The notes under the pieces are model-generated. The model did no database searches and had not been told where the DNA came from. It was given only the letters and a program-made list of their open reading frames with translations. A stretch of DNA of 32,000 nucleotides. Source: Nitrospirota bacterium (GTDB lineage Bacteria; Nitrospirota; Nitrospiria; Nitrospirales; Nitrospiraceae). Shown here piece after piece: positions 11,483 to 32,000 of the stretch. The DNA lies in assembly GCA_963850405.1 (NCBI GenBank), contig CAWKLH010000025.1, positions 223,554 through 255,553 of the forward strand. The letters are read 5' to 3'. The position numbers and the translations under genes are program-made. Each line of letters starts with the position of its first letter. Position 1 is the first letter of the stretch.

Positions 11483-11594
11483 CCTCCGTCATTTCAGTCG
11501 GCCGTGGCCAACCAGGCGTTCTGTTCCCTAAGAGTGCCTGATCAGCCGCCGATACCGACCTTATGGTTCATATAGTCTGCATCCGCCCAATTAC

Positions 11595-12640: not shown

Positions 12641-12669
12641 CGTATACTCTTGCGGATGGTTGAAGTCAA
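12641..12669 (-). promoter_or_regulatory. Candidate sigma70 promoter upstream of amoC
   Basis: On the minus strand, TTGACT (12669-12664), a 17-nt spacer, then TATACG (12646-12641). A second candidate is TTGACT(12566-12561)-18-GATACT(12542-12537). Pattern match only. Confidence 0.3.
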
Positions 12670-12787
12670 GTTCAGCAGGGCTGTGCCATGAGGACTGTCT
12701 CTCTTGGCGGGCCACGCGATGTGCGTTTTTGTCCGAATGGAACTCTCTCGATCAACTACCCTGGGTGGGCCTGATTTAGGGCCTGAT

Positions 12788-15201: not shown

Positions 15202-15282
15202 AAGCTCCCTCTGCGCCCGATTGCTACACCTGCGGTGATGCATCGGGTGGTCTAGTCTGGCGTTCCCTTGAGAAGTCGCTTC

Positions 15283-15867: not shown

Positions 15868-15929
15868 GTTCAACCCTCGTCTTTCTCTAATCCTCAGCAT
15901 TCAAAACGGTTTCGCTATAGTCTAAATCA

Positions 15930-16514
15930 TTAGGACGCTACGGGTTGCGATGGCTTGCGGTCTCTCATGAAAAACACAATCCCTAGGACAATGAGCACCG
16001 CAGCCACAGGAAACATGTAGATATTTAAGAACTTGGTATAGAACTTCGGCTCTCCCACCGAAAATGGAAACTTGGAGACATGCTCTTTCTTGTCGCCCAC
16101 GGTGACGATGCCGACAAATTTTCCTGGCTTGTCAAAGGTATAGGCAAAGTCGATAGAACCATTGGGATACACTTTGGCCGGAAGGTTAAACACGGTGTTG
16201 GTCTCAAGATTCTCTTCTGTGCCGGTGTCTTTGATGATCCGAACTTCGGTAGGGAGGGTGCGAAGCTCTTGCTCGATGTAATCCAGCACGACAATTGTTT
16301 GGCCGACCGCTGGGATATCCTCACAGAATTGTTTTTGTTGAGTGTTTTCAGGCTGATATCCACTGAAGTGCATCGTGTAGGGGCCGATCGTGAGCTTGCA
16401 CATGTCCTCGGCCATGGAGAGCCCACCGTGAGCATGGACCTGCGAGGACAGGAGAGCACTCAGAATAACTACTGCACATCCAACTGTCAGTTTCAGTGAT
16501 ACGAAAGACTTCAT
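15930..16514 (-). CDS. PmoD/AmoD-AmoE family protein, paralog 2
   Basis: ATG at 16514 (MKSFVSLK...) with AGAGGA upstream. Signal peptide (VHA/HGG), the motif CKLTIGPYTMHF and a C-terminal TM helix. The ORF-track extension to 16697 overlaps the upstream gene. Confidence 0.75.
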   Translation of the reverse strand: MKSFVSLKLTVGCAVVILSALLSSQVHAHGGLSMAEDMCKLTIGPYTMHFSGYQPENTQQKQFCEDIPAVGQTIVVLDYIEQELRTLPTEVRIIKDTGTEENLETNTVFNLPAKVYPNGSIDFAYTFDKPGKFVGIVTVGDKKEHVSKFPFSVGEPKFYTKFLNIYMFPVAAVLIVLGIVFFMRDRKPSQPVAS

Positions 16515-16581
16515 GAACGTGTCCTCTTTTTTGCAATGGTGAAGAGTAATGCTCAGATACTGACATGCGTCGTCCGGTTGC

Positions 16582-17169
16582 TCATGAGCGACGGCGTGAT
16601 GCAAACCACCCCCGCACTCGACCCGATTTCGAGAGCTCATATCCGACAACCCCGAGTACCAGCAGCAATGCCAATGGTCCAAGAGCTGCGCGTCCAAGCT
16701 TTGAATAGTCAGCCTGCTGCACGCGCAGCAGGTAGGTGGAAGGGCTGAGCCCTTCCGCTGTGATGATCAATTTGTAGAGCCCCTTTTCCAGCGTGGCTTC
16801 ACCCCTCACGATCCCATCTGGGTGAGAAACCGGTTTCCAATAGGCCACGGTCTTGGACTCGTCCTGCTCGTTTTCATTGACTCCTTGAATGATCTTGACC
16901 CCTACCGGCATATTGCGCAGGCTCGGGTCGACAAGGTCCACGACAAGGAACGTATCCCCCACATCTGGGATCTCTGTACAGTACTGAGCCTTCGGCTCAA
17001 TTTGTGGCTGGTAGGCACTGAAATGCACCATATTCCCACCGATTTTGCGCACACAAATGTCCTCTTCCATCGCCACATTCCCATGTGCGACGGCGGCAGT
17101 AGGGCTGATTACGGTTACGAGGACCAAGACCAGGAGGGGGAGGCTTATTCGGACCGCACACTTAATCAT
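16582..17169 (-). CDS. PmoD/AmoD-AmoE family protein, paralog 1 (distal)
   Basis: Signal peptide (AVA/HGN), the motif CVRKIGGNMVHF (C-x7-M-x-H) and a C-terminal TM helix. It is more diverged from the other two. Confidence 0.75.
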   Translation of the reverse strand: MIKCAVRISLPLLVLVLVTVISPTAAVAHGNVAMEEDICVRKIGGNMVHFSAYQPQIEPKAQYCTEIPDVGDTFLVVDLVDPSLRNMPVGVKIIQGVNENEQDESKTVAYWKPVSHPDGIVRGEATLEKGLYKLIITAEGLSPSTYLLRVQQADYSKLGRAALGPLALLLVLGVVGYELSKSGRVRGWFASRRRS

Positions 17170-17245: not shown

Positions 17246-17375
17246 GTGCTCGAACCATGCGCCTGGATCTGGTCCGATGGTCTATTCACCCCGCGCATGG
17301 ATGTGGCTCAAATAATACTGAGAATCCATTTCGCCGAATTTGAGAGACGAAATCAGAATACATCTATTTATCGAG

Positions 17376-17405
17376 TTGACGACGAGCGCGATACGTGATG
17401 ATAAT
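17376..17405 (+). promoter_or_regulatory. Candidate sigma70 promoter for the bfr pair
   Basis: TTGACG (17376-17381), an 18-nt spacer, then GATAAT (17400-17405), about 40 nt upstream of the bfr ATG. Confidence 0.45.
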
Positions 17406-17444
17406 GAGAGCGACGGTGATGATTTATTCGGAAGGAGGCCAAAG

Positions 17445-17921
17445 ATGAAAGCGAAAGAAGGGGTAATCAACATTCTTAACAAAATCCTGACGGCTGATTT
17501 GACTGCCATCAACCAGTATTTTGTCCATGCCAAGATGTGTGAGAACTGGGGGTATGACCGGCTCTATCATAAAATACGGGAGCGGAGCATCGATGAGATG
17601 AAGGATGCCGACGAACTGATCGGCCATATTCTCTATTTGGAAGGTGTGCCCAATGTGCAGCGAATGAATGCCGTTCAGGTCGGCGAGACGGTAGCTGAAC
17701 AGCTAAAGTTGGACTTGAAGGCGGAGCAGGAGATGCTGGCCTTGTTGAACGAGGGAGTCGTGCATTGCACGAAGATCACCGATTTTACGACCCGGCACAT
17801 GCTTGAAGATATGGCGAAGGATGTTGATGCTCATATCGATTGGATCGAGACTCAGCAGGAAACGATCAAGCAAGTCGGCCTGGAGAACTATTTGGCTGAA
17901 CAGATCAAGAAAGAATCCTGA
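17445..17921 (+). CDS. bfr: Bacterioferritin subunit, heme-ligand type (Met52 present, ferroxidase ligands degenerate)
   Basis: ATG at 17445 with GGAGG upstream. The 158 aa align without gaps to E. coli Bfr: D18, E51, M52, D54, E94, V127, H130. Confidence 0.9.
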   Translation: MKAKEGVINILNKILTADLTAINQYFVHAKMCENWGYDRLYHKIRERSIDEMKDADELIGHILYLEGVPNVQRMNAVQVGETVAEQLKLDLKAEQEMLALLNEGVVHCTKITDFTTRHMLEDMAKDVDAHIDWIETQQETIKQVGLENYLAEQIKKES

Positions 17922-17929
17922 GGGAATCC

Positions 17930-18400
17930 ATGAAAGCCAAAGAAGGCGTCCTTGAGTTTCTTAGTCAGGTGCTCAGATCCGAGTTGACGGCCGTTCACCA
18001 GTACTTGTTGCACGCGGCGCTGTGTAAGAATTGGGGATACGAGCGGCTGCATGAGCACTACAGTCACTTGGCGAATGAAGAAGTCCAACACTCTGCCGGG
18101 CTGATAGACCATATCTTGTACCTAAACGGTACACCAGAGGTAGGACATCTCGATACCGTGGCGCATGGGCCAAATGTGGAAGTGCTGCTTCGCGCCGATC
18201 TGGAATTTGAACGCGAAGACGTCGAATTGCTTCGAGGGGCGATCGCTCATTGCGCGAAAGTCAGTGATTTCACAACCCGTCATTTGCTCGAACATATGAT
18301 TGAAGATTCAGAAGATCACGTCGACTGGTTTGAGACTCGGCTGAGAACCATCGGTCAGGTTGGCCTCGACCGGTTCTTGTCAGAGCAGATCAAGAAGTAA
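17930..18400 (+). CDS. bfr: Bacterioferritin subunit, ferroxidase type (Met52 replaced by Val)
   Basis: It starts 8 nt after the first bfr. The 156 aa align without gaps: E18, E51, V52, H54, E94, S127/E128, H130. Confidence 0.9.
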   Translation: MKAKEGVLEFLSQVLRSELTAVHQYLLHAALCKNWGYERLHEHYSHLANEEVQHSAGLIDHILYLNGTPEVGHLDTVAHGPNVEVLLRADLEFEREDVELLRGAIAHCAKVSDFTTRHLLEHMIEDSEDHVDWFETRLRTIGQVGLDRFLSEQIKK

Positions 18401-19139: not shown

Positions 19140-20870
19140 TTACTGATAGTCCTCGTTCAATGCCTTTAGGAAAGCTGCTAGCGGGGCGACATCCTGAGCT
19201 GTGAGGCCAATCCCCCCCAGTTCACGATCGCCGTTCCGCAGACCACCTGTACGTTGGAGGTCTGATACCTCACGGTAGAAATCCACAATCTGCTCAAGTG
19301 TGTCGAATTGACCGTTGTGCATGAAGGGCTCCGAGTGTCCGAGGTCGCGAAGGCCGGGTGTCTTGAATCGCGCAATTGCACGATCGAGAAGGGTTGCATC
19401 CGGTAGTGGACAAGGCTGTTGATCGTCGCAGAGCAGCGCATGGATCTTTGGCTGCGGTTCTGGCATGTCTGGATTGGCGAACACGTTCCACGCTCCAAGA
19501 TCCGTTAAGACCGGAAGGCCGACTGTCGGGATGGCGCGGAATGGTTCACGCGCGGCTGGATGGGTCTCTGTGGCTGGAAGGAACTGGTCGTAGTTGCTAT
19601 TCCGGGTGGCCAAGTTTGGAATCGACAAGCTTGTGAATTGTCCGGCCCCGTGGATGAGATCGTATTCTTTCTGCGTCGTGCCGGTGTTATGCAGTTTAAA
19701 ATCCGTAAAGTTGGGTACCGCATGACAGGCGATACAATTCCCGATCTTACCAGCACTTCTTTCAGCTGGTGAGGCGGGCAGCGCTGAGGGTTCCGCTAGG
19801 AATATCTTCAATCCAGCGAGCTCTGTGGCTCCGAACGCGAAGGCTTGAGTATGAAATTGAAACCGTCCATCTGTTCGGTTGGGGTTGGAGGTCACGAACT
19901 GCGGAGAGAATCCTGGCGCATTCACAAGCGCTCGGAGTCGTTGGCTATAGGTGAGCGGTGACTCGTTCGGATTTGGCTGCTGGGGGAGTGCGTTGGTCTC
20001 CAGAAAGACATCGAAGGGAGAGCGGATCGGCGCGCCGCTTTCTTCGGTTTGCGAAAAGAGGAGGCCGTTGACGTACGCCGCGACCACCCGCACGACGGCA
20101 TCAAAAATTTCTTGATCGCTACCTGATCCGACAAAGGCACGAAATTTAGCAGGCAGGCTGAGCTCATCAGGAATAGAAGGGTCGGTGCCAGTAAACACAA
20201 TGCGATAAGACAAGCCGGTGTCGGTCAGGTCAAAGGAGCCATCATCTTCCCGAACCACCCTTGCAATGTGCTGAATGGCCTGGGCTCTTTCTCCTGGTAG
20301 CCAGCCGAAGTTCCGTCCGGTAAAGGTTGCCGCGATCAAGTCTTCCATGGAGTTAAACTCAGCATCGAAATGGAACAAAACGCCTCCTGGCCTCTCCAGA
20401 GTCGAATTGACTAATGGCGGAGAGTTTCGTGGAGCGTGCGTCTTACCATCGGTTCTTGCCGGAATCGGGCTTCGGCGCGCGAAGTCGGCATAGGTTCGCA
20501 TACCGCCACCAGGAGATGAGAGGACGTCATCCACTAAATGGCAGGCGCGACAGTTCATCGACATCCCTTTGAACGGTCCCGGGTCGATCGGTGCGCCCAA
20601 GGTTTCAAGTGTATTGACGACGCCATCGCCTGCCTTAGGATCGTTGATGGCGCCACCATTACCCAAGAACACCTTGAACGCTTGGGCGAATCGCGTGTCC
20701 AGAAATAACCGTTCCCCGAGAGCTTCTGCGGCTGCCGGTGTCCCAGTAGCCGTGGGCGGCGGGGGAGTATTCTCAGGTCCTGAGCAGGCGGCAAGTTCAG
20801 CGAGCAAAAGAATCATCGGGAGGAAGGTATGGGTGATCTTTGGTTGAGGTGCAGTGAGTGTCGGGCTCAT
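19140..20870 (-). CDS. Diheme cytochrome c peroxidase / MauG-family lipoprotein (large form)
   Basis: Two CxxCH motifs (CRACH, CIACH) about 275 residues apart and a lipobox (LAACSG). The start is uncertain: ATG at 20870 with AAAGGAA upstream, or GTG at 20930. Confidence 0.8.
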   Translation of the reverse strand: MSPTLTAPQPKITHTFLPMILLLAELAACSGPENTPPPPTATGTPAAAEALGERLFLDTRFAQAFKVFLGNGGAINDPKAGDGVVNTLETLGAPIDPGPFKGMSMNCRACHLVDDVLSSPGGGMRTYADFARRSPIPARTDGKTHAPRNSPPLVNSTLERPGGVLFHFDAEFNSMEDLIAATFTGRNFGWLPGERAQAIQHIARVVREDDGSFDLTDTGLSYRIVFTGTDPSIPDELSLPAKFRAFVGSGSDQEIFDAVVRVVAAYVNGLLFSQTEESGAPIRSPFDVFLETNALPQQPNPNESPLTYSQRLRALVNAPGFSPQFVTSNPNRTDGRFQFHTQAFAFGATELAGLKIFLAEPSALPASPAERSAGKIGNCIACHAVPNFTDFKLHNTGTTQKEYDLIHGAGQFTSLSIPNLATRNSNYDQFLPATETHPAAREPFRAIPTVGLPVLTDLGAWNVFANPDMPEPQPKIHALLCDDQQPCPLPDATLLDRAIARFKTPGLRDLGHSEPFMHNGQFDTLEQIVDFYREVSDLQRTGGLRNGDRELGGIGLTAQDVAPLAAFLKALNEDYQ

Positions 20871-20960
20871 GGCGTCGTGGTTCCTTTCTGCAAAATCTGT
20901 TTGGTCCTTCTGAACGCTCTCTTGGCTCACATCTACGGGAGTCCATCGTTATGAATGGGA

Positions 20961-21023
20961 GGCACGGGCCCTCGGGAGGTGAGGGCCCGTGCCCGCAAAG
21001 TGGGAGCGGTGGGGGCTCCCACT
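20961..21023 (-). terminator. Two tandem GC-rich hairpins after the HD-GYP gene
   Basis: First hairpin: GGCACGGGCCCTC / GAGGGCCCGTGCC, 13-bp stem, 20961-20993. Second hairpin: AGTGGGAGC / GCTCCCACT, 9-bp stem, 20999-21023. They lie between the HD-GYP stop (21056) and the CCP-like start. The U-tract is poor. Confidence 0.5.
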
Positions 21024-21055
21024 TCGAGGCCGGCGTCGGATGTACGCCGACTGCG

Positions 21056-21748
21056 CTACCGGTGAGGTCTGTCCCTTACACACATGGTTTCCGGCTCTCT
21101 CATGAGTTCGGCCAGGAGACCGACGACCGAGGGGTCAAATTGAGTTCCTGCAGCCACCTGGAGAATTCGAAGTGCAATGCGATCTCGAAGGGGGCGATCG
21201 TAAACTGAAGGGACCTGGATAGCTTCGAATGCATCGGCAACTGCGAGTATTCTTCCTCCCAACGGGATGAACGTTCCCCTGAGTCCATAGGGATATCCCG
21301 ATCCGTCCCATCGCTCGTGGTGATGGGCGATCATGACTGTGGCCTCACGAAGGAATGAAAAAGGTTCTAGCAGCGTGGCTCCCAGCCGCGGGTGGTTTTG
21401 AATCGCCACATAGGAGTCTGGCTCAAACCATTCGCGTTTGGTTTGCAAGCAGGGTGGAAGCATGAGAACGCCGATATCGTGAAGCAGGGAGGCCAGCTTG
21501 AGCTGATGCAACTCCTCGTCGGTGAGATGTGCGGCCCGTCCGATCTGAAGTGCGATCGCCGCTGTTCCCTGGCCATGCCCGGCCTGCCACGGTAGAAGCC
21601 GGTCCAGTTCTTTCGCCACTTGCCGAACCAGAATACTTTCCAGATCGCGCCGTGAGGCGGATGGCAGATGGAGACGATCGATCTTTGTGAGCATGCTCTG
21701 AATGGTCAAGACGGCCGGCTCGATCCGATCTGCACCATCGACATGCAT
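21056..21748 (-). CDS. HD-GYP domain protein (putative c-di-GMP phosphodiesterase)
   Basis: LLHDIGVL and HHHERWDGSGYPYGL motifs. ATG at 21748 has GGAGG 7 nt upstream; the ORF-track start at 21793 has a poor RBS. Confidence 0.85.
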   Translation of the reverse strand: MHVDGADRIEPAVLTIQSMLTKIDRLHLPSASRRDLESILVRQVAKELDRLLPWQAGHGQGTAAIALQIGRAAHLTDEELHQLKLASLLHDIGVLMLPPCLQTKREWFEPDSYVAIQNHPRLGATLLEPFSFLREATVMIAHHHERWDGSGYPYGLRGTFIPLGGRILAVADAFEAIQVPSVYDRPLRDRIALRILQVAAGTQFDPSVVGLLAELMREPETMCVRDRPHR

Positions 21749-21854
21749 GATGCTGCCTCCTGTAAAAAACGAAGAGCCCAGAATCGCTCGCATGATCCTG
21801 GGCTCTGGGCGAATAGCCGCTGGCCTCTAAATGGTGTACCGCCAACTGAGATGG

Positions 21855-22373
21855 TTAGGACCCTTTGGGGTGCTTCCCTCCCATTAAAGGCTGTCCCAGT
21901 ATCCACATTTCATACAGTGGGACCACCATCATGACTAAGAAACTGATCGTCATGAGGATATCTCCGGTCAACATTGAGATCACAAACATAGGAGACACGT
22001 AGCTAATCAGCCATGGCGATACCAGATCGAGCATCACGCCACCGAAGCCAGCCCATGTAGTGACGGCCTTGAGGGTATGGCTTGCGCTGGTCAGGTACAT
22101 CACATGAATCAGAATCATGAAGACGACCGGCATCGTAAAGAGATGAAAATGGGTAATTTCAGCCAGCTCGCGAAACGACATCGGTTCCCCGAATGTCGCG
22201 TCCGATCCTCGATAGTGCTCAGCAATGCCTTGCGGTGACAATCCCGTCATGCTGTGTGCCCAAAAAAACGAAAATGTAAATCCAGCTAGCATCAAGAGTA
22301 AGAATAATGTGTAGAGCAACCGGATATGGCGATCTGAATCACGGAGCCGGAATTTCTGGTTAAAGTTTCGCAT
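21855..22373 (-). CDS. Small 4-TM membrane protein, His-rich in and near the helices, unknown family
   Basis: 172 aa with four hydrophobic segments and His in WAHS, AEHYRG, ITHFHLF and LIHVMY. It starts 25 nt downstream of the FMN-binding gene. Confidence 0.7.
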   Translation of the reverse strand: MRNFNQKFRLRDSDRHIRLLYTLFLLLMLAGFTFSFFWAHSMTGLSPQGIAEHYRGSDATFGEPMSFRELAEITHFHLFTMPVVFMILIHVMYLTSASHTLKAVTTWAGFGGVMLDLVSPWLISYVSPMFVISMLTGDILMTISFLVMMVVPLYEMWILGQPLMGGKHPKGS

Positions 22374-22398
22374 GTCTGGGACGCTGGGTCCGCTTCAG

Positions 22399-23067
22399 CT
22401 AGTTTCCGAAGATGGACGGGAACAACCCTCTGTCTTTTTTTGCGGCCAGCGTGTCGCTGCCGATCCCGGATGGTTTTAAATAGAACTCATCAACCAACAC
22501 AAGCACACGCTTAATACCGGCACTCATGGAGCGTACAGACATGGTCGCCCCGCTGATGTTAATGATGTCTTTGTTGATCCGAACCGGATCGAGGACGGAC
22601 TTGCCCTCATACTGGGCGTTAAACCGTTTTTGCCGAACCTCGCTCCCACGCGCTTCGCGGAACACCAGAAGCTCGATATCTGATACAAAACCCTTGTTGT
22701 CGATGCCGACCATGTAGGTCATCGGCTTATGCTTGCCGATGGTGCTCTGAACGATCGCGTAACCGTCAATCTGGGACCCGGTTTCCCCAATATAGACTTC
22801 GAAAGACTCTTCGGGGAACTTCCAGCCGATACGCTCTTCAATGAGGGCCTTTTTCTCAGGGCTGAGCTTGATGAGCTCTTTACGAACTCGTTCGGACTTC
22901 GGAAGTATGACCTTAAGGCCGTCTTCTTCTCGCAGATAGACCTCGGCCATGTTCATTTCTTGCTCAGTCAAATAGCGTTTGAGATCGTTGTCCCAAACAC
23001 GCTCTGCGCCCATTGATACGATCGGCGTCATGAACAGGGCGATGAGCACCGAGAGAAGTCTCATCAT
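22399..23067 (-). CDS. Periplasmic FMN-binding domain protein (NosR/RnfG-type FMN_bind, ApbE substrate-like)
   Basis: Signal peptide; FMN_bind-like core (GKHKPMTYMVGIDNKGFVSDIELLVFREARG) and the flavinylation motif DIINISGATMSVRS. ATGA overlap with the upstream lipoprotein gene. Confidence 0.8.
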   Translation of the reverse strand: MMRLLSVLIALFMTPIVSMGAERVWDNDLKRYLTEQEMNMAEVYLREEDGLKVILPKSERVRKELIKLSPEKKALIEERIGWKFPEESFEVYIGETGSQIDGYAIVQSTIGKHKPMTYMVGIDNKGFVSDIELLVFREARGSEVRQKRFNAQYEGKSVLDPVRINKDIINISGATMSVRSMSAGIKRVLVLVDEFYLKPSGIGSDTLAAKKDRGLFPSIFGN

Positions 23068-23519
23068 CGTGATGCCTCACACCCCTTGTCTTTGAGTCGT
23101 GCGGTGAGCTTTCCCGTGATCTCGTCCATCACTTCATCAGACGGTTCAATTGGCCACCACCTGGTCGCCTGTTGGGTCGCTCCGCCTCTGGCATGCCAGC
23201 GTTGTCTGGTTTCGAGTACATTTACCGAGGACTGGTCATTGTTGCTCTTGACGACAACCGTTAAGCGGGCTCGTTCACGGTTGCCGAATCCCTCTCGTCC
23301 CAAGATTCCGTAAGGCCGGGTTTTCCCTTCCATTTCCACCCAGGCCGTCTCGATGGTGCCAGCACTTTTGTCTTCCGCTGTGACTGAGTAGCCTTTCATG
23401 GTGTCTAGCGTTGCTTCCCAGGCGGCATCATAGGGGCAGACAAATGCGTGGTCATGGCCACCACTCAACGATGCACAGGCTGTTAACGCTAAAAACGGAA
23501 GGAGAAGAATTACGCGCAT
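23064..23519 (-). CDS. Lipoprotein of unknown function
   Basis: Lipobox LTAC/AS, 151 aa, translationally coupled to the FMN-binding gene. Confidence 0.7.
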   Translation of the reverse strand: MRVILLLPFLALTACASLSGGHDHAFVCPYDAAWEATLDTMKGYSVTAEDKSAGTIETAWVEMEGKTRPYGILGREGFGNRERARLTVVVKSNNDQSSVNVLETRQRWHARGGATQQATRWWPIEPSDEVMDEITGKLTARLKDKGCEASR

Positions 23520-23579
23520 AGGTTGGTTCCTATCCTGTCATGGTGAGGGAGGCCGGCATTCGCCAGCCTCCCCTTGCTC

Positions 23580-25058
23580 CTAAAAATACGTGGCTGCTGA
23601 AATGACAAACGCACTGTCATGAATACGCTGGTCGTTGTTCGGATTGAGAGATTTCGGCATGTACTGATAGCTCATCTTGAGGACGGCATCTTCGACGGGG
23701 CGGTAGTTCAACCCGAACGAAATCTGTTCGAGCTCGCCCCCATTCTCTCCTTTGTTGCCTAAATTCAAATTCACTCGATCATAGCGAATGACCGCGGTGA
23801 AGGTTGAGCCTTCCCCGAACCGTTTGGGGGAGAGCTTTGTTAAGAAGGACGGCATGAAGTGATAGTTGCCTTGAATGTAAAACCCCTGCATTCTTTCAGG
23901 GGGCAAGCCGAGGGGATTCAGTGTGCCGATGCCGGTCAGTAATGAGCCTGGCGAAATCCCTTGGAAGGTATTGCCGGTGATTGCCCGTGAGTTTCCTCGC
24001 GCATGGGCCCAGGCTGCTTCACCGATAAGTTCAAACGGCCCTTTTTGAATCGTCCAATCAATCGCGAAGATGCTGAGTGGATTGTAACTCGTCGCTGATT
24101 GGTTGCCGAAGTAGCCTGATCCTGCCACTTCCACACCGAGTATGGGACTGAAGGCCAGACGGCCGGACACCGCTTTGCCGTTATTGATGTCCAGCCCATC
24201 TGCGGAGCCACATTTCCGCTGACGGGCTTCTTTTGTGCCTCCCGTTTCTGTGACGCGTGGTTCGCCATCGCCGTTATAGCCGCAGGGGCCGGTCGTAAAG
24301 TACACTTCGTAATCGAGTTTGCCGGTTCGGCCTGGGTAAAACGTGCCATACAAGCCGGCGCCTGTTTCGGACATGGTCGAGGGAATGATCAGTCGGCTGA
24401 CAATAGGTCGATCAGTCAGGTCGTTTAATGGAGAATCGTGCAGAAGGTTAAACTTCCCGAGGGGGATGAGGACAATTCCTCCTCGCAGGTTGACCTTTTC
24501 ATTAACAAGATAGTCAACATGAGCAAATTCCAGGCTGATCTCCACGTCGTTGGTTGCCCTGATGCCATGTTCGATCTCGATTTCTGAGGCAAACTTGAGA
24601 TGTTCAGTGATGTCAGCGTAAATAAAGGGGACGAATCGTTGCTGGTCGAATCCATTGGTGGTTCCACCATCCCGCCCTGATTCAAGCACAGAGTTTCGGT
24701 GTGCGCGATATTGAATGTCGAAATATCCACCGACGATCGCCTTGGGGAATGACACAAACGGCTTCGCATAGATCAGCCTGCCGGATCCGCTTGAACCGAA
24801 CGAGAGAGGGGCTTGCTGCTCTACCCGCCGCTCCTTACCGACTTCTGGAAGTGAGCCGATTCCAGGCTCTGCTGCAGGTGTGGCGGAACCTTCACGCCGC
24901 TCCGTGGTGCCCTCGCGGCGTTCGCGCTCTTGCAGACGTTTTTCTACTGCCTCATCCACCAATTTCTTAATGTCCTCTGGGGTCAAGTTTTCTGCTAGCG
25001 CCGGCATGACCGGCAAGCTCATGATCACGAGAGCCCCGAGGATTGACCGTAACTTCAT
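23580..25058 (-). CDS. Outer-membrane porin-like beta-barrel with N-terminal coiled-coil
   Basis: GGAGG RBS, signal peptide (PALA/EN) and a charged helical segment (EDIKKLVDEAVEKRLQERERRE). The rest shows an alternating beta-strand pattern ending in a C-terminal aromatic residue (...SAATYF). Confidence 0.75.
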   Translation of the reverse strand: MKLRSILGALVIMSLPVMPALAENLTPEDIKKLVDEAVEKRLQERERREGTTERREGSATPAAEPGIGSLPEVGKERRVEQQAPLSFGSSGSGRLIYAKPFVSFPKAIVGGYFDIQYRAHRNSVLESGRDGGTTNGFDQQRFVPFIYADITEHLKFASEIEIEHGIRATNDVEISLEFAHVDYLVNEKVNLRGGIVLIPLGKFNLLHDSPLNDLTDRPIVSRLIIPSTMSETGAGLYGTFYPGRTGKLDYEVYFTTGPCGYNGDGEPRVTETGGTKEARQRKCGSADGLDINNGKAVSGRLAFSPILGVEVAGSGYFGNQSATSYNPLSIFAIDWTIQKGPFELIGEAAWAHARGNSRAITGNTFQGISPGSLLTGIGTLNPLGLPPERMQGFYIQGNYHFMPSFLTKLSPKRFGEGSTFTAVIRYDRVNLNLGNKGENGGELEQISFGLNYRPVEDAVLKMSYQYMPKSLNPNNDQRIHDSAFVISAATYF

Positions 25059-25394
25059 TGATATCCTCCGTCATAGAATAAGTGTTATGGCCTGACTCGG
25101 GACTCGATGGTCTCTGGTCGCGTCAATCGAAATATGGGGTATATCAAACGGATAGTGGCGCCTCCTTTTTTAATCACGTGATGCTATGGTGAAACCGCTC
25201 CCCAGCCTTCGATCATGAAGAAAAAGGGATCACAACAATACGCTTACACCGTTTACATTTGAGTTCCAGCCCTTGTCCGCATACCTTGGCGATCAATTGT
25301 CCACACTCACAGCGCGTTTCATGAGTCGGATCGTATTCCAGCGATGGTGCCTTGATGCGTAGTCATGATATGCGATGATTGATAGATTGAAATT

Positions 25395-25413
25395 GAGAAC
25401 GATTATTAATATC
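25395..25413. promoter_or_regulatory. Candidate Fur box
   Basis: GAGAACGATTATTAATATC matches the 19-bp consensus GATAATGATAATCATTATC at 14/19 positions (hand count). It overlaps the -10 element of the promoter at 25406-25434. Confidence 0.5.
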
Positions 25414-25434
25414 CGATCAGTGTTCCGCTGTCAA
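25406..25434 (-). promoter_or_regulatory. Candidate sigma70 promoter of the porin/FMN-binding operon
   Basis: On the minus strand, perfect TTGACA (25434-25429), a 17-nt spacer, then TATTAA (25411-25406). This would give a leader of about 340 nt before the porin ATG. Confidence 0.55.
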
Positions 25435-25683
25435 GTCGGAAGTTCTTCCTGGTAAGGTGGATGTCTGTGTGCGTTTCCAGAGTCGCTTGTCTTACAATTT
25501 CCACATGAGGATATGCGCTGTTGCCAAGAACTTCTGTTAATAAATATCCAACCCTTGGTGGGCGCTCCATGGTTGAGATCCTTCCTCATCCGGTGCAGAG
25601 AGAAGAGCAGTTTACGAAGTGATGTGTATTCTGCGATGTTCCGGAATAGTTCATCGGCACTTGGGGGTGAGAATAATCTGGCG

Positions 25684-26713
25684 ATGAAGTCTCTCCTTCT
25701 AAACGCTAGGTCCATAGCGATAGCCGGTCTTGCACTGGCATCCTTCGCGAGTTGCGCCGAGGTGTCACCCTCCCCCCTGCCCGTCGTCGTAAAGCGAACT
25801 CAAATGCATATGGGGACCCTGGTTACGATCACGGCTGTGTCGCCCGACCAAGATGTGGGCAACCGGGCGATGCAGGCCGCATTCGATGAGATCAAGCGAC
25901 TCGAACAGTTACTGAGCACCTGGCGTTCTGACAGCGAACTGTCACGGGTGAATCAAGCAGGCCGGCCGTCAGCCTGTCCAGGTGAGTTCTGAGACGCTTG
26001 AGCTGGTCACTCGATCTCTGGAGCTAGGGCGCCTGACTCATGGGTGGGTTCAATATTGCACTCGGTCCTGCCATCGAAGCCTGGAGTGTAATCGAACGGC
26101 AGCGCATTCCTGATGAGAGGGAGTTGCAACGATTGAAGCCTCTCGTCGATTGGACACGCATTCAAGTCAATAAAGAAGCGCGGACTATTTATCTGCCGCA
26201 TACGGGAATGCGTATTGATGTTGGTGGGATTGGGAAGGGATACGCAGCCGATCGGGCGGTGGAGGAGATGAAACGAGTGGGAGTGAGGGCGGGCGTGGTT
26301 GCGCTATCAGGAGACATCAAAACTTTCGGTGTCCTGCCGGACCGAAAGGGGTTTCCGGTCGGTATCAGGCATCCACGTCGAGGAAGGAGGATTGATTGCC
26401 ATGATCGACCTGAACGATGAAGCCGATTTCAACAGCGGGTGATTACGAACGGTTTTTCGAACGAGATGGCGTCCGGTATCATCACATCTTGGACCCGCAA
26501 ACATTACAGCCGGCACGAGCTTGTCAGAGCGTCACGGTGATTGCCAAAGAAGGCACGATGGCTGACGGATTGGATACAGGGATTTTCGTGTTAGGACCCG
26601 AACAGGGGATGGCGTTGGTGGAGCGCTTGCCGGGGGTTGAGGCGATCATCATCGACCAGGAGGGCACGATCACTGTCTCATCCGGACTCCGTGGTCGGCT
26701 GCACGCGCCATGA
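25684..26713 (+). pseudogene. apbE: ApbE-family FAD:protein FMN transferase lipoprotein, broken by four +1 frameshifts
   Basis: ApbE-like sequence runs through frames 1>2>0>1>2. The segments read ...SELSRVNQAG | GRQPVQVSSETLELV...LTHG | GFNIALGPAIEAW...IDVGGIGKGYAAD...GIRHPR | EEGGLIAMIDLNDEA | ISTAGDYERFFERDGVRYHHILDP... Extra nucleotides sit at about 25963, 26045, 26379 and 26425. Removing them gives 342 codons. Lipobox FASC. Confidence 0.8.
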
Positions 26714-26727: not shown

Positions 26728-27604
26728 CTACCGCGCCATCTTGAGATCGTAGCTAATCGAAAACTTTACTGGCATTTGGCGCCGTTCCAGTGGGCGAGAG
26801 AGCTTGATCGGGGGGCCGCTTCTCACATCCTCCAAGGCAACTTGATCAAGCGCAGGATTGCCTGAGCTCTTCGCGATACGCACATCACTCAAGAGTCCGT
26901 CTTCATGCAGCATCGCAGTCAGCGTCACTTTCCCCTGAATACCCTCCGTTCGTAATGTTACCGGGTATCGTTTGTCGAGATCTTCGATCCACCGTGCCAT
27001 GAGCTCCGCCAGCCATCCGTAGTCGGCTTTGGTTGGCGTGAGTTGGTTGGAAGGTGCCGAGGAGACAATCACGGAAGACGAAGAGTCGAGTGGAGAATCC
27101 TTGGCCACCTGGGATTCAGGTGGAGCTGTCGAACTTTCTGTGCAGACATCACGAGGTCAGCCGATGGACCCGACAGGTCCTGCCGCGCAACTTGAGGTGA
27201 TGGGAGAGGCGCAGAAGGTACCGAATCAGGGGGAGCCTGCTCCTGATGGGATTCTGGACTGATTTCAGCGATAGGTACTGGCGCAGGTGGAGTTACCGGT
27301 ATCGTTCTTTGTTGAATCTGTTTCCCTGCTGGGAGACGCATCGTTCACTGACGGAGCGTGTGGCTGAAGTGTCGGACTTGGCGGCGCCATTGCTCCAGAC
27401 CTCAACGTGGCTCCCGGTAAGGATGAGAGCGGAGCAACCATTGCCACATCCCACTGGAACGGGTCAGCCTGCGGCGCCAATTGCATACGCTGGACAAAGA
27501 GAGATCGCTGCCACGGCTAGGCCTCCGTGTAGTAGGCAGGATACCAGCCAACTAGCCGCCATAGGGCCAGTCTGACCGCGTGAACGCGTCATGGATTTCC
27601 CCAT
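26728..27604 (-). pseudogene. tonB: TonB, apparently disrupted by about three frameshifts in the linker region
   Basis: ATG at 27604 overlaps the exbD stop (ATGA). The N-terminal TM has the SxxxH motif (SCLLH) and that frame stops at 27464. Pro-rich segments continue in two other frames (PVTPPAPVPIAEISPE...). An intact TonB C-terminal domain (YPVTLRTEGIQGKVTL...) lies in the 26728..27108 ORF. Confidence 0.65.
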
Positions 27605-27978
27605 CACAGGCGGATGACCTCCAGACTGACTTGCTGAAATCCTAAGCCGCGAATCTCGTCGACGAGGGCCACGAATTTCTCGAGCAGCGTGACTTTGTCG
27701 GCTCGCACGACCACAGCCGATTCACGCGGCTGCGAGCTGAGAACAGAGGGAAGGCCTCCATCGGGGACCGGAGAGTCATTGAAGAATAGACTTCCATCAG
27801 CCGTCAAGGAAATCACGATGGGAACATCCTTCCGATCGCTCACCTCCTTGGCCTTGGCCAGGTTGACGGGAATTTGTCCCGTGCTGATGAAGGTGGCGGT
27901 CGTCAAGACAATGACGAGCAAGACCAACATCACGTCCACGAGCGGGATCACGTTGATCTGATCAATGTTCCGTTCCAT
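27604..27978 (-). CDS. exbD: ExbD/TolR family biopolymer transport protein
   Basis: 124 aa with an N-terminal TM (INVIPLVDVMLVLLVIVL) and a typical ExbD periplasmic domain. Confidence 0.85.
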   Translation of the reverse strand: MERNIDQINVIPLVDVMLVLLVIVLTTATFISTGQIPVNLAKAKEVSDRKDVPIVISLTADGSLFFNDSPVPDGGLPSVLSSQPRESAVVVRADKVTLLEKFVALVDEIRGLGFQQVSLEVIRL

Positions 27979-28393
27979 GTTGTGTCCTATACTCGGTCAG
28001 GATCTCACTCACACGACGACGCAGCACGTTATTCATCACGACACAGGGTATAGCGACCAGAAGACCGATGGCGGTCGCTTTCAATGCCAAGCTCAAGCCG
28101 ATCATGATGGTGCTCACGGCCATCGTCCCCGACGTTCCCATCGTATGGAATGTCAACATTATACCAAGGACGGTTCCCAGGAGGCCGATATATGGGGCGT
28201 TAGCAGCCACCGTACCAATAATCACGAGGCGTTTAGTCAGAGTGATTTCCAGCAGTTGCGCGTTTGAAAACTGAGAGAGATTGATGCGTCGGTAAAAGAG
28301 CCAGCGCTCGATGGCGATAGCCACGGACCACACGCTCAGGGCCAGTAACAGGCCGATGACTCCGAAATCAATGATGTCTTTCAACGCGTCCAT
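27962..28393 (-). CDS. exbB: ExbB (MotA/TolQ/ExbB proton channel, short form)
   Basis: 143 aa with 3 TM and the motif APYIGLLGTVLGIM. AAGGAG RBS. Confidence 0.85.
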   Translation of the reverse strand: MDALKDIIDFGVIGLLLALSVWSVAIAIERWLFYRRINLSQFSNAQLLEITLTKRLVIIGTVAANAPYIGLLGTVLGIMLTFHTMGTSGTMAVSTIMIGLSLALKATAIGLLVAIPCVVMNNVLRRRVSEILTEYRTQHGTEH

Positions 28394-28518: not shown

Positions 28519-29616
28519 CTAGGAGTGAGGAGATGGTTCGGCAGGAAAGAGAACCGTGTGGGTGGCAGAGACACGGAGTTCGACGGCGGTACCTTCCTGG
28601 TAGACGCAGGTTGAGCTTTCACTGCTGTGGATGATCTGCCCGGATGGGAGCTGGATCGTGTAGAGATTTTCAGACCCTCTGAACTGGCGGGCCACAACCC
28701 GAGGTTCGGCTGATTTATTGGGCATGAGCTGGATGTCGTCCGGGCGGATCATGACAACGACCGTGCTTCCCTCAGGACTGTTGAGCGTATCGGGGAACTC
28801 TCCCAGTTCGGTATGCACCATGCCTTGTCGAATCTGTCCGGTGACAAAGTCGGCTTGGCCCACAAAATCGGCCACGAACCGCGTGGCGGGGAGATGATAA
28901 ATCAGCTCTGGGGAATCCATCTGCTCGAGCACTCCCTGATTCAGAACGGCGATACGGTCCGCCATGGCGAAGGCTTCGTCATGATCATGCGTCACTAGAA
29001 TGGTCGTGGTTTTCATCCGGCGTAACAAGGCGTGGACTTCCTGCCGCATACGGCCTGCCATATCGGGGTCAAGGTTGCTGAACGGCTCATCGAGGAGGAG
29101 CAAGACAGGATTCTGCACCAGCGCTCGGGAGAGCGCCACTCGCTGCTGCTGTCCTCCCGACAACTCATGCGGGTAGCGTCGGTCGAGCCCTTCGAGGCCG
29201 GTCAGCCGCAGCATTTCTTGAACCCGACATGTCCGTTCCGCCCGTGACAGATGATGAAGCCCGAAGGCGATGTTATCGGCGACGCGCAGGTGTGGAAAGA
29301 GGGCGTACTCCTGAAAGACCATGCCGACACGGCGGTCCTCCGTTGGAATCGTTCCCGAGGAAGAGGAAACCAATTGGCCCGATAAAAATATGTGTCCGGA
29401 CCGGACTGGTTCAAACCCGGCGATGGCTCGCAGGACGGTCGTCTTGCCACAGCCGGACGGTCCAAGCAAACAGAGGATTTCGCCTTCTCGCGCAGAAAAT
29501 GAAATATCGCGGATCGCCGGTCTGCTGGGATCATAGGCACAGGACACAGAACGGAGTTCCAAGATGGAAGAGGCCGGCTGTGGTGAGGGGGAGGTGACCT
29601 TCGCGCCGGTCGGCAT
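28519..29616 (-). CDS. ABC transporter ATP-binding protein, Fe(III)/polyamine importer type (FbpC/AfuC-like)
   Basis: Walker A GPSGCGKTT, signature LSGGQQQRVAL, Walker B LLLLDEP and a C-terminal TOBE-like domain. Confidence 0.85.
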   Translation of the reverse strand: MPTGAKVTSPSPQPASSILELRSVSCAYDPSRPAIRDISFSAREGEILCLLGPSGCGKTTVLRAIAGFEPVRSGHIFLSGQLVSSSSGTIPTEDRRVGMVFQEYALFPHLRVADNIAFGLHHLSRAERTCRVQEMLRLTGLEGLDRRYPHELSGGQQQRVALSRALVQNPVLLLLDEPFSNLDPDMAGRMRQEVHALLRRMKTTTILVTHDHDEAFAMADRIAVLNQGVLEQMDSPELIYHLPATRFVADFVGQADFVTGQIRQGMVHTELGEFPDTLNSPEGSTVVVMIRPDDIQLMPNKSAEPRVVARQFRGSENLYTIQLPSGQIIHSSESSTCVYQEGTAVELRVSATHTVLFPAEPSPHS

Positions 29617-29654
29617 CCACCTGTGTGATGTGTGAGGGGGCGGTCATAGTGATG

Positions 29655-31238
29655 TTACGCTGCCCGCCAATCACGGGATAGCAACAAGGCGAGCGCCGGT
29701 AGGCCAACGAGCACGATCAATAAGGCGGATGGGGCCGCCAGTTGGTAATACTCTTCACTTGCTTCCAGCCAGACACGGATGGCCAAGGTGTCAAACCCCA
29801 CCGGTCGCAACAACAACGTCGCGGGGAGCTCCTTCATCGTCTGCAAAAAGATCAAGACCCATGCCACGATGACCCCGTTGCGAATGAGGGGCAGCGTCAC
29901 GCGACGCCAGGTCTCCCGAACGGTCAGACCCAGGGTGCGGGCGACTTCTTCAAGATTCGGCGTAATTTGTTGAATGGACGGTTCAAGCGACTGGAGCCCG
30001 GCTGGGAGGTAATGCAGGACATAGGCGACGATCAACACGAAGACCGTACCATAAAAGAACGGCAGGACTTTTAGAAAGAGGACCAATACCGCGAGTGCGG
30101 CGACCGGTCCTGGCAGGACATAGCCGGCATAAGCGGCTTGCAGACAACCAGTATTGAGCCAGGTTGGTTTTCGGCTGGCGAGGTAGGCGAGAGGCAGCCC
30201 AACCAATACGCCGGCCGTGGCGGCCAGGGTTGACAGCAGGGCGCTGTTCCAGACGAAGCCGAAGAAGCGGGCGTCGAGAATCGCCTGGGCTTCCGGGGAT
30301 AGGCTCCATGTCACCAGGAGAGAGACAGGGATTCCGAAGGCCAAGCCAATCACGGTGCTCAAGCATGTCGTCAGCGCTGCCGTGTGCCACCATCCGCACT
30401 GGATGCGTTGCGGCGCTCGAAAGCGCCCGCTGGTCTGGTAAAACCGGCTCTTTCGACGAAACCATCGTTCGGTCAACAAGAATAGGAGCGCCAGGATGAC
30501 TAAGAGGATGCTCAGGATACTTGCGGCCTGGTTGTCGGACCGTCCGGTCATTTGCTGAAAGACGGCGTAGGTCAGTGTTTGGTAACGCAGCAGAGAGACG
30601 GCACCGAAGTCGGAAACGACGTACAGGATGACAAGGGCGACGCCGGCGACGATCGATGGGCGGAGCAACGGAAGGGTGACGAACAGCATTCTCCGAAGTG
30701 GTGACGCGCCACATGTGCGGGCGACTTCTTCAAACGACACGTTAAAGCTGAGGAGTGCACTGCGTGTGAGCAAGTAGACGAAGGGGAACGTGTCGAGCGC
30801 CATCACCAAGGTAACGCCCCAGAAGCTTTGGGGTGAGATGATCCTGGCTTCAGGTCCGGCGATCATCTGCCAGAGATGTTCAACCGGACCGCCGAATCCC
30901 AAGAGATAGTTGTACACATAGGCCAGGACGTAGGTCGGCATGGCGAGCGGCAGCACAAGACCGACTTCCCACAGCCGGCGGCCAGGGAATTCAAATCGTG
31001 TGACCATCCAGGCGGTCGAGACGCCGAGCACGAGTGTGAGCAAGGCCACGGCACCCGCCAAGGAAACCGTATTCCACAACAGTTCCGGGACTCGAGTGGT
31101 CCAGAGCCGATGCCACACCGAGAGATCGGCCGACAAGGCGAGGGCGGTGACATAGCCGAGAGGCAACAGGATCAAAGCCGCGCTGGCAAGGGCGGCGAGT
31201 TGGAGTGGAGAAACAGCTAATCGGCGTACGGCAATCAC
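29655..31238 (-). CDS. Fe(III)-type ABC transporter permease, duplicated two-domain form (FbpB/AfuB-like)
   Basis: 527 aa with about 12 TM and two EAA-like loops (EEVARTCGASPLRR and EEVARTLGLTVRE). GTG start. Confidence 0.85.
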   Translation of the reverse strand: MIAVRRLAVSPLQLAALASAALILLPLGYVTALALSADLSVWHRLWTTRVPELLWNTVSLAGAVALLTLVLGVSTAWMVTRFEFPGRRLWEVGLVLPLAMPTYVLAYVYNYLLGFGGPVEHLWQMIAGPEARIISPQSFWGVTLVMALDTFPFVYLLTRSALLSFNVSFEEVARTCGASPLRRMLFVTLPLLRPSIVAGVALVILYVVSDFGAVSLLRYQTLTYAVFQQMTGRSDNQAASILSILLVILALLFLLTERWFRRKSRFYQTSGRFRAPQRIQCGWWHTAALTTCLSTVIGLAFGIPVSLLVTWSLSPEAQAILDARFFGFVWNSALLSTLAATAGVLVGLPLAYLASRKPTWLNTGCLQAAYAGYVLPGPVAALAVLVLFLKVLPFFYGTVFVLIVAYVLHYLPAGLQSLEPSIQQITPNLEEVARTLGLTVRETWRRVTLPLIRNGVIVAWVLIFLQTMKELPATLLLRPVGFDTLAIRVWLEASEEYYQLAAPSALLIVLVGLPALALLLSRDWRAA

Positions 31239-31253
31239 AGGGTGCTCGCAGCG

Positions 31254-32000
31254 TTACCGCATCCCGACTTGTTCGATGAGCAGCAAGGTCGGCTCTCGGA
31301 GTTCGGCGAGCTTGGTCAACGGTACCAAGGCAGCCCGGAAGCTCTTCCGTTCGACCAGCGCTGGATCGGCTTTCACCTCCGGATGGAGCGGATACTCTTT
31401 GTCGAGGTCGGCGAACATCTTCTGGCCGGCTTGTGCCACGAGAAATTCCACGAGCAATTTGGAGTTCTCCACGCGGGGCGTGTGTTTTAGGATGCCGATG
31501 CCCGCCACGTTCATGATGGCGCCCATGCCCCCCTCGTGCTGATCAGGCATCACAACCGCCAGCGGAGCCGCTGGTTGTGTGGCGAGATGTCGATAGACGT
31601 AATAGTGATTCACGATGCCCATGGCGACCTGCCCCTTGGCGACGGCGTCAACGATCTGTGAGCTTTTTTGGTAGACCTGTGTGCCGGCGTTATCCCGAAG
31701 CCCTTCGAGGAATTTCTTGGTGTGATCGTCACCGAGACTAGCGCGAATGACTGACACTCCTGCTTGCAAATATTCACTGCCGGCGTTGGGAATGGCGATC
31801 TTGCCCTTCCACGTTGGATCCGCCAAATCCATCAAGGACTTGATCTGATCGGGCTTCACCAGTGTCGTGTTGCACACAACAATCCAAAACCGGCCTGACA
31901 AGCCGATCCAGCTGTTGTCCGCTGCGCGAAATTGAGGAGGAATGGCCCGTTCGATTTCCCGCATGTTCAATGGGCGAAAGAGTCCAGCCGTGCGAGCCAT
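31254..32000 (-). CDS. Periplasmic Fe(III)-type substrate-binding protein (FbpA/AfuA-like), 5' end outside the window
   Basis: The 248 aa at the C-terminal end resemble family-1 solute-binding proteins. There is no signal peptide because the ORF runs off the window edge. Confidence 0.8.
   Translation of the reverse strand: MARTAGLFRPLNMREIERAIPPQFRAADNSWIGLSGRFWIVVCNTTLVKPDQIKSLMDLADPTWKGKIAIPNAGSEYLQAGVSVIRASLGDDHTKKFLEGLRDNAGTQVYQKSSQIVDAVAKGQVAMGIVNHYYVYRHLATQPAAPLAVVMPDQHEGGMGAIMNVAGIGILKHTPRVENSKLLVEFLVAQAGQKMFADLDKEYPLHPEVKADPALVERKSFRAALVPLTKLAELREPTLLLIEQVGMR

Follow-up and report, generated by a model that had tools for sequence, protein, structure and literature searches.

What is the function of an operon that joins an outer-membrane porin, a lipoprotein, a predicted flavoprotein and a small membrane protein, lies divergently from the gene of the flavin transferase ApbE and is flanked by iron genes? 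The question is raised by the minus strand of a 32,000-nucleotide (nt) stretch of DNA from a Nitrospirota bacterium, hereafter the window. We propose, with moderate confidence, that the operon would encode an iron-starvation-induced, flavin-based extracytosolic redox module, most likely one that mobilises iron. Its core trio, which consists of the porin, a flavoprotein with an FMN_bind domain and a protein with four transmembrane helices (the 4-TM protein), recurs in distant bacteria, where it is linked to ApbE by adjacency and by gene fusion.

Composition and conservation of the operon

Four consecutive open reading frames (ORFs) appear in series in the ORF listing of the minus strand, as stated in a preliminary description of this DNA. 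They encode the porin-like protein (23580-25058; 492 amino acids (aa), with a signal peptide and the C-terminal end ...ATYF), the lipoprotein (23064-23519; 151 aa, with an LTAC lipobox), the RnfG/NqrC-like FMN_bind protein (22399-23067; 222 aa) and the 4-TM protein (21855-22373; 172 aa). The stop codon of the lipoprotein gene and the start codon of the FMN_bind gene share the sequence ATGA, in agreement with the translational coupling suggested earlier for this pair. An additional minus-strand ORF with a Zn-ribbon pattern, located approximately at 25184-25366 and frameshifted in the window, is the first gene of the operon. On the opposite side, the operon ends at a predicted intrinsic terminator 3' of the 4-TM gene (21763-21806, minus strand), which displays a 13-base-pair stem followed by a T-run (hairpin and T-run at 21773-21806).

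A genome scan located the gene set in 80 species-level Nitrospira loci. The order ABC importer, exbB, exbD, tonB, apbE (on the opposite strand), small ORF, porin, lipoprotein, FMN_bind, 4-TM and, where present, an HD-GYP gene and a di-haem MauG/MbnH-like gene, with two bacterioferritin genes at the end, is kept in essentially all of these loci that have enough flanking sequence. Conservation of the gene set as a unit, one of the checks proposed at the outset, is therefore observed in about 80 species of the genus. A profile search with A3 returned proteins from Nitrospira only.

A further scan of metagenomes, which used non-Nitrospira seeds and an iterative ORF search, yielded 80 distant loci at 28-39% identity; the counts of partners refer to loci with enough flank. 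Of 49 such loci, 43 have the FMN_bind gene next to the 4-TM gene; a porin homologue is adjacent in 21 of 26, and ApbE is encoded at a distance of up to 5 kilobases (kb) in 7 of 19, which marks the flavoprotein as the tightest partner of the 4-TM protein. Fusions of ApbE with the FMN_bind domain in a single ORF are found in three loci (L095, L117 and L157). The lipoprotein, the small ORF, TonB, ExbBD and HD-GYP are absent from the distant loci, and clustering of the neighbouring genes revealed no further recurrent partner there, be it a cytochrome or a transporter of ferrous iron.

The FMN_bind protein matches PF04205 over residues 111-189 with a score of 31.5 bits, above the cutoff of 22 (E 2.8e-7). 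Its SGAT motif at residues 172-175 aligns with the TGAT or TGST of solved RnfG chains, a stretch in which we take the flavinylated threonine of RnfG to lie, and the structure alignments span the motif (9eri_G, E 1.3e-6; 7zc6_G, E 5.9e-5). The motif is present as (S/T)GAT in 62 of 68 distant FMN_bind homologues. The original assignment as an FMN_bind protein carrying a flavinylation motif is thus corroborated by a domain score above cutoff, by the register with RnfG and by conservation of the motif. A hydrophobic segment resembling a signal or anchor, MMRLLSVLIALFMTPIVSMGA, is visible in the sequence at the N-terminus. By prediction from these sequences, the protein should be flavinylated by ApbE on T175 (codon 22543-22545).

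RnfG and NqrC are the closest sequence relatives of the FMN_bind protein, with which they have the domain and the motif of the flavinylated threonine in common. By contrast with the RNF and NQR systems, no RnfA-E or NqrA-F genes are found near the operon, and with the rnfG models of NCBIfam the protein reaches 22-27 bits, far under their cutoffs of 102-205. The FMN_bind protein is partnered here by a 4-TM protein of another family and by a porin.

The porin scores 18.5 bits against Porin_O_P (PF07396), below the cutoff of 20.9, and many of its close homologues are annotated with PF07396. Its AlphaFold2 model (mean pLDDT 57.8) contains 16 strands, an N-terminal helix formed by residues 27-49 and a linker of low confidence. 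A Foldseek search retrieved OprP (2o4v, E 4e-11) and also OprO and OmpF-type or general porins; the 16-strand model and these fold matches bear out the porin identity given in the preliminary description. Some homologues are named TonB-dependent receptors at NCBI. That name was rejected for the window protein on the basis of its length of 492 aa, its 16 strands, porins as its best folds and the absence of any Plug or TonB_dep_Rec match in Pfam. The modelled fold indicates that the protein is an outer-membrane porin, not a TonB-dependent receptor.

The resemblance to OprP and OprO comprises the weak Pfam match, the homologues annotated with PF07396 and a 16-strand model that matches 2o4v and 4rjw. 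The window porin differs from both in that it falls below the gathering threshold, is extended by a helix at the N-terminus, has a long linker, and is found in a context of flavinylation and iron instead of phosphate. Within Nitrospira, a profile search with the porin separates two deep clades, at 70-80% and 44-50% identity.

The lipoprotein scores 22.7 bits against DUF3576, below the cutoff of 25. Its position is conserved within Nitrospira and it is missing from the distant loci, a distribution that identifies it as an accessory limited to Nitrospira, as far as sequence searches can tell. No [S/T]GA[S/T] motif was found on reading the sequences of the porin and the lipoprotein, the nearest stretches being TGAG and GGAT; a flavinylated barrel of the DUF3570-like type was rejected on the same ground.

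A group of Nitrospira genomes (L007-L013) displays an exchange of the segment that corresponds to 22400-25170. Protein identity to the window is 44-45% for the porin, 37-39% for the lipoprotein and 69-73% for the FMN_bind protein, while ExbB, ExbD, the ABC proteins and the 4-TM protein of the same genomes are 97-99% identical. Precisely over the porin, lipoprotein and FMN_bind genes, nucleotide identity drops to about 0.5 from a level of about 0.95. This joint replacement, between genomes with an identity of 93-99% otherwise, suggests that the three proteins function together, and the cassette suggests an allelic replacement of a surface-exposed unit with co-evolution of its three proteins.

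The 4-TM protein is assigned to PF27139 (Aq_1264_TM) by the precomputed Pfam annotation of an identical protein and of all homologues (E <= 1e-5); our local copies of Pfam and NCBIfam gave no match at E <= 0.01. The family comprises 496 clusters at 50% identity, and cluster look-ups showed one of them to come from Nitrospinae. An alignment of 50 diverse members reveals that G56, H75 and H77 are invariant, that W121 and W157 are nearly invariant, and that H90 is present in 42 of 50 sequences. The three conserved histidines are all located on the second transmembrane helix (TM2). The protein had been described as His-rich: it does contain 8 histidines among 172 residues, but only H75, H77 and H90 are conserved. 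The AlphaFold2 model (pLDDT 92.5) consists of four transmembrane helices and a short helix in the first loop. The sequence E72-x-x-H75-x-H77 lies at the periplasmic end of TM2, with H90 deeper, and E155 is found at the cytoplasmic end of TM4.

Comparison of the model with the PDB gave no fold match at E < 1, with a library in which membrane cytochromes of known structure are represented, FoxB among them (7ABW, a structure cited in PMC11334425). The suggestion that the protein belongs to DUF4405 or a cytochrome b-like family, for which a profile search had been recommended, finds no support, the family being PF27139. Likewise, no Pfam or NCBIfam match and no PDB fold relates it to MsrQ-, PepSY- or NapH-like proteins, to DsbD or to NqrB/RnfD-like proteins. 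The four-histidine bis-haem pattern of FoxB, MsrQ and DUF4405 is not found in the 4-TM protein, which has three conserved histidines on one helix.

Two distant members of the family, P0179 and P0235, are Aq_1264_TM::ApbE fusions. Both are encoded directly 3' of an FMN_bind gene, and one of them also 3' of a porin homologue and of a second, free 4-TM gene. The signal or lipobox segment of ApbE forms a fifth helix in these proteins, which supports an N-in/C-in topology for the four-helix domain and a location of ApbE outside the cytoplasm. One locus (L088) encodes one free and one fused copy of the 4-TM protein.

Promoter, operator and leader

The putative promoter of the operon combines a -35 hexamer TTGACA (25429-25434, read from the minus strand) with a -10 hexamer TATTAA (25406-25411) over a spacer of 17 nt. 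Its description as a perfect promoter is overstated in view of the -10 hexamer, which agrees with TATAAT at only 4 of 6 positions and, because of the A at position 6, fails the promoter-scan rule. A 26-nt operator, GATATTAATAATCGTTCTCAATTTCA (25388-25413, minus strand), holds a Fur-like box, GATATTAATAATCGTTCTC, at 25395-25413 that overlaps the -10 hexamer. On the minus strand the box agrees with the E. coli Fur consensus in 15 of its 19 positions and on the plus strand in 14, the latter being the value reported before. It is the top Fur-consensus match in the window, where 0.07 matches of such quality are expected by chance.

The operator is strongly conserved. Among 69 Nitrospira loci, 50 carry exactly this 26-mer and 60 have it with at most one mismatch, so that the check on conservation of the Fur box across the genus, recommended in the preliminary description, has a positive outcome. 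In 62 of these loci the TGAC of the -35 hexamer stands at one constant distance from the operator, and the promoter spacer occurs in 63 distinct sequences across all 69. The combination of an identical 26-mer with freely varying spacers constitutes a clear phylogenetic footprint of the operator over the -10/start region.

Fur-like sites were also sought ahead of the first module gene in 50 distant loci, with 134 upstream regions of these loci serving as the control. A match of 13/19 or better precedes 16 of the 50 modules vs 11% of the controls (Fisher p 0.0016), and one of 14/19 or better precedes 9 of the 50 vs 3% (p 0.0013). The best site reaches 18/19 (L117), and boxes of the GAAAATGAAAATCGTTTTC type are common to four distant loci.

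The promoter is situated about 330 nt 5' of the porin gene and not directly before it; the preliminary description had overlooked the conserved Zn-ribbon ORF in between. In the relatives this ORF encodes 59-64 aa with the pattern ...ETRCECGQLIAKV..LELKCKRCKRI..IPFS.IEGW.., which contains a CxC...CxxC Zn-ribbon arrangement, and it is intact in L002 and L004. A tblastn search matched it in 66 of 85 Nitrospira loci, which are nearly all of those whose sequence extends that far. Its similarity to the Pfam family Zn_ribbon_Com is below threshold (E 0.04; 13.8 bits, cutoff 22.9). In the window, the ORF carries a +1 insertion near 25358, just past the ATG, and a +2 insertion near 25214, close to its end. 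L005 and L006 have a rearranged segment 5' of the porin, in which the operator is followed by a paralogue of the lipoprotein (131 aa), a Zn-ribbon ORF of 53 aa and the porin; tonB was not found beside exbD in these two loci.

Just 3' of the Zn-ribbon ORF, and 45-60 nt 5' of the porin ATG, the 5' untranslated region (5'-UTR) contains a nearly invariant element, CCAGAGACCnnnGAGTCCCGAGTCAG (25092-25117, minus strand), in which GAG(A/T)C occurs three times. It is present with at most five mismatches in 71 Nitrospira loci and the window, and with at most two in 66 of these 72 sequences. RNAalifold predicts only a weak 7-base-pair hairpin without real covariation, and the porin 5'-UTR folds no better than shuffled sequence (z +0.95). 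A riboswitch or other known RNA in the long leader was dismissed after a search of Rfam at E <= 1, which gave only a chance SorX match inside apbE.

The element may be a candidate binding site for a Com-like small protein or for another regulator. Com of phage Mu is a Zn-ribbon protein that activates translation of mom. The operon resembles that case in having a CxC...CxxC Zn-ribbon ORF of about 60 codons, with a weak match to Zn_ribbon_Com, just 5' of the invariant element. It differs from it in that the Zn-ribbon match is sub-threshold and in that no stable RNA structure is predicted in the 5'-UTR.

Frameshifts in apbE and tonB

The apbE gene (25686-26713, plus strand) encodes a lipoprotein-type flavin transferase and lies divergently from the operon, as originally described; its reading frame is broken in the window by four +1 insertions, which the description had not taken into account. 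The ApbE domain recognised by Pfam is spread over three ORF pieces in three to four frames, and comparison with four relatives places the single-base insertions near 25958, 26040, 26380 and 26425. A lipobox can be read in the apbE sequences of the relatives, which indicates that their ApbE is extracytosolic. The adjacent tonB gene (26728-27590, minus strand), which encodes a TonB_C domain, undergoes at least three frame changes, near 27138, 27333 and 27500; the tonB of relatives is intact and encodes 256-365 aa.

The window was compared over 25.2-32 kb with six genomes that are about 93% identical to it. In the relatives apbE, tonB and the small ORF are intact, and apbE forms an ORF of 1026 nt in all six. 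About 13 insertions or deletions (indels) are private to the window; they fall between 25214 and 29579 and comprise 11 insertions (ten of +1 and one of +2), with no larger deletions within genes. The indel near 29579 alters the N-terminus of the ABC ATPase. The other syntenic genes that were checked (17.4-25.1 kb, 27.6-31.2 kb and the amo region) are each in one frame.

These indels might reflect true decay, in which case apbE, tonB and the small ORF would be pseudogenes in this organism and the flavoprotein could not be matured from the window locus. Such a reading accounts for the concentration of window-specific changes in 25.2-29.6 kb, absent from the six closest genomes, and for the single frames of the remaining syntenic genes. 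Against it, frame-corrected apbE has a pN/pS of 0.13, comparable to the 0.1-0.2 of exbB, exbD and the ABC genes, most of the indels are small insertions, and the ApbE-dependent part of the operon is intact. In addition, a contig from another assembly (L001), with 99.8% identity to 20381-25030, differs by three deletions of 1 nt and displays the porin as two ORFs. The deletions of L001 suggest that assemblies of the window organism, probably from long reads, are prone to indels. We consider decay, which would be very recent, rather improbable. A local defect of assembly or consensus is the more likely origin of the frameshifts, to judge by these sequence comparisons.

Proposed function and genomic neighbourhood

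According to the mechanism we favour, a five-gene operon for the Zn-ribbon protein, the porin, the lipoprotein, the FMN_bind protein and Aq_1264_TM would be transcribed from a sigma-70-type promoter. A Fur-family operator would cover the -10/start region, and iron starvation would lead to derepression. The extracytosolic lipoprotein ApbE would flavinylate the periplasmic RnfG-like protein on T175, and the flavoprotein would in turn reduce Fe(III) species at the porin or entering through it. The 4-TM protein would serve as the membrane partner of the flavoprotein in the inner membrane, and flavin-based extracytosolic electron transfer would result in mobilised iron. What the sequences show is the set of genes, its conservation, the footprint at the operator, the flavinylation motif and the fusions; the response to iron, the direction in which electrons flow, the reduction of Fe(III) and the role of the 4-TM protein are points that we infer.

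Nitrospira, including the complete ammonia oxidisers, depend on iron-rich enzymes, and no account of iron acquisition in the genus was found in the literature searched. The locus is thus a conserved and probably iron-regulated candidate for this task, beside tonB-exbBD, Fe ABC importer and bacterioferritin genes.

The closest described systems are found among the flavinylation-associated gene sets surveyed by Meheust et al. 2021 (PMC8238504) and Huang et al. 2024 (PMC11334425), above all the Fur-linked PepSY-like/FMN_bind and the P19/FTR1-associated iron systems. Fur- and iron-linked reductive iron uptake based on flavinylation is already published for other systems (PMC8238504). The likeness consists of apbE beside a secreted FMN_bind protein with an [S/T]GA[S/T] motif and a small membrane protein, of the link to iron and Fur, and of a proposed extracytosolic reduction for iron assimilation. 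The present set differs in its membrane part, which is PF27139, with four helices and no four-histidine haem arrangement, and not NapH-, MsrQ- or PepSY-like, DsbD, NQR/RNF-like or DUF4405. It also differs in having an outer-membrane porin as a core partner and no ferrous transporter in the core.

The combination of porin, FMN_bind and Aq_1264_TM genes is described neither in the two surveys nor in the articles retrieved by full-text literature searches, which upholds the earlier statement that the gene set had not been characterised experimentally. Both articles contain no mention of the word porin or of Nitrospira, and literature searches on Aq_1264 returned nothing relevant. We assume PF27139 to be a recent addition to Pfam, in which case it was unavailable to both surveys. 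The trio would add a widespread class to the handful of membrane partners in these papers, with a new membrane protein family and an unusually obligatory outer-membrane component, and PF27139 gains a first functional context.

Several observations weigh against the proposed function. The apbE gene is disrupted in the window sequence. The 15-mer core of the operator was found only at the operon promoter in 1.26 Mb of Nitrospira loci, and once in the window. An operator common to the operon, tonB-exbBD and the ABC importer is therefore not borne out, and its lack of recurrence leaves co-regulation with the neighbouring iron genes unsupported. From the sequence, another regulator of the Fur family (Zur, Mur or PerR) is possible. 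The importer next door belongs to the Fe(III) type and is not an Fe(II) transporter, and outside Nitrospira neither the ABC importer nor tonB-exbBD is a member of the module. The 4-TM protein lacks a cytoplasmic domain as well as any recognisable motif for haem or quinone; its conserved histidines are on one helix, and its fold resembles none of the known membrane cytochromes. Moreover, its fusion partner is ApbE and not the flavoprotein, and a role in assembly or flavin supply fits at least as well.

The 4-TM protein was originally put forward as the entry point of electrons at the membrane, a function that we infer purely from its company. Its candidate roles are those of an electron carrier, perhaps with a haem bound by a dimer as in FezC, whose haem site is formed by dimerisation (PMC11334425), an accessory of ApbE or of flavin supply, which the fusions favour, and a metal permease, in view of the ExxHxH...H arrangement.

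As an accessory of flavinylation, the 4-TM protein would be a membrane dock for ApbE or an exporter that supplies ApbE with FAD in the periplasm, and the flavoprotein would receive its electrons from an unlinked donor. The four-helix domain is fused only with ApbE, whose lipobox or signal segment as a fifth helix leaves the enzyme outside, and the coexistence of free and fused copies in L088 suggests an oligomer that works with ApbE. The lack of a haem-type histidine pattern and of a membrane-cytochrome fold agrees with such a role. To our knowledge, the route by which FAD reaches the periplasm is not established for most Gram-negative bacteria. On the other hand, the 4-TM gene of the distant loci is accompanied by FMN_bind far more regularly than by ApbE, and neither the Pfam and NCBIfam searches nor the fold search reveals similarity to known flavin transporters. 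This role is unlikely, though it deserves to be kept in mind.

More doubtful still is that the 4-TM protein acts as an inner-membrane permease for reduced metal, with a path from the porin through the flavin reductase to an Fe(II) permease. The placement of E72, H75 and H77, of H90 and of E155 resembles a ladder of ligands, the distant modules have no other recurrent transporter, and flavinylated systems often adjoin ferrous transporters (PMC8238504). Nevertheless, a permease would leave the flavoprotein without a source of electrons and the ApbE fusions unexplained, and the 4-TM protein displays no similarity to known metal transporters.

It is very unlikely that the module is unrelated to iron and answers to another regulator (Zur, Mur, PerR or an unrelated AT-box protein), with the porin and the flavoprotein engaged in a different kind of periplasmic redox chemistry, for instance repair after oxidative stress or the reduction of an anion that an OprP-like channel admits. 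In favour of this reading, 4 of the 19 positions of the operator deviate from the Fur consensus, no copy of it was found at the iron genes nearby, the anion-specific OprP and OprO are the nearest relatives of the porin, and TonB, ExbBD and the ABC importer fall outside the module beyond Nitrospira. Against it, near-perfect Fur boxes precede distant modules (the 18/19 site of L117 and the boxes common to four loci), their enrichment over control promoters is significant, and the Nitrospira module is surrounded by genes for bacterioferritins, TonB-ExbBD and the Fe ABC importer.

The flavin-based iron module that we prefer invites a comparison with extracellular electron conduits. MtrCAB is a porin-cytochrome conduit, and Cyc2 is a fused porin-cytochrome. 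The module resembles them in the genetic coupling of an outer-membrane barrel with two partners, a redox protein of the periplasm and a protein of the inner membrane, and in the idea of iron redox chemistry that spans the envelope. It differs in that one predicted covalent flavin takes the place of haems and in that the barrel is a 16-strand porin of the general or OprP type; no CxxCH motif is visible in the translated operon proteins. A haem-free porin-flavoprotein conduit might be imagined as the counterpart of MtrCAB and Cyc2, in which Aq_1264_TM would represent a new class of electron-transfer proteins of the inner membrane and, for example as a homodimer with a haem bound through H75/H77 and H90, would pass electrons from quinol to a covalently flavinylated protein docked at or in the porin. 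Fe(III) would then be reduced at or beyond the outer membrane, and the Com-like Zn-ribbon protein would control translation of the porin through the 5'-UTR element. We offer this elaboration as highly tentative.

The genes around the operon fit the description given at first, which named tonB-exbBD and an Fe(III) ABC importer as neighbours: exbB, exbD, a TonB_C domain and the ABC genes were all found. Two intact minus-strand genes, exbD (27604-27978) and exbB (27962-28393), are followed by the Fe(III)-type ABC importer (28519-32000, minus strand), which is composed of an ATPase, a double permease and a binding protein cut by the window end. All of these are context genes outside the core module.

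On the other side of the operon, an HD-GYP (HD_5) gene is listed at 21056-21793 on the minus strand. Its true start is probably about 21748, because the relatives align from there and a ribosome-binding site and an ATG follow the terminator. It is succeeded by a gene for a di-haem MauG/MbnH-like protein of 596 aa (19140-20930, minus strand), with weak CCP_MauG and TIGR04039 matches. The MauG/MbnH-like and HD-GYP genes come after the operon in most Nitrospira loci, and three distant loci (L146, L149 and L155) likewise have a homologue of the di-haem protein 3' of the module. Two tandem bacterioferritin genes with TIGR00754 matches occupy 17340-18400 on the plus strand. The first of them is listed with too early a start, as relatives align from about 17445, and a 13/19 match to the Fur consensus is present at 17314-17332, just 5' of the pair.

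Farther along, the minus strand carries amoB (9369-10628), amoA (10625-11482), amoC (11595-12464), a gene for a CopD/cytochrome c/thioredoxin-like fusion (12788-14803) and copC (14800-15243). The presence of amoCAB and copCD at 9369-15243 indicates that the window comes from a comammox Nitrospira, and the amo and cop genes are likewise nearby in the relative L004. The interval from copCD to the bacterioferritin genes holds three paralogous ORFs in tandem (205, 255 and 195 aa; 15283-17169, minus strand). They have no Pfam match, and each begins with an N-terminal signal-like segment. A single protein of L004 matches all three, at 75%, 45% and 32% identity.

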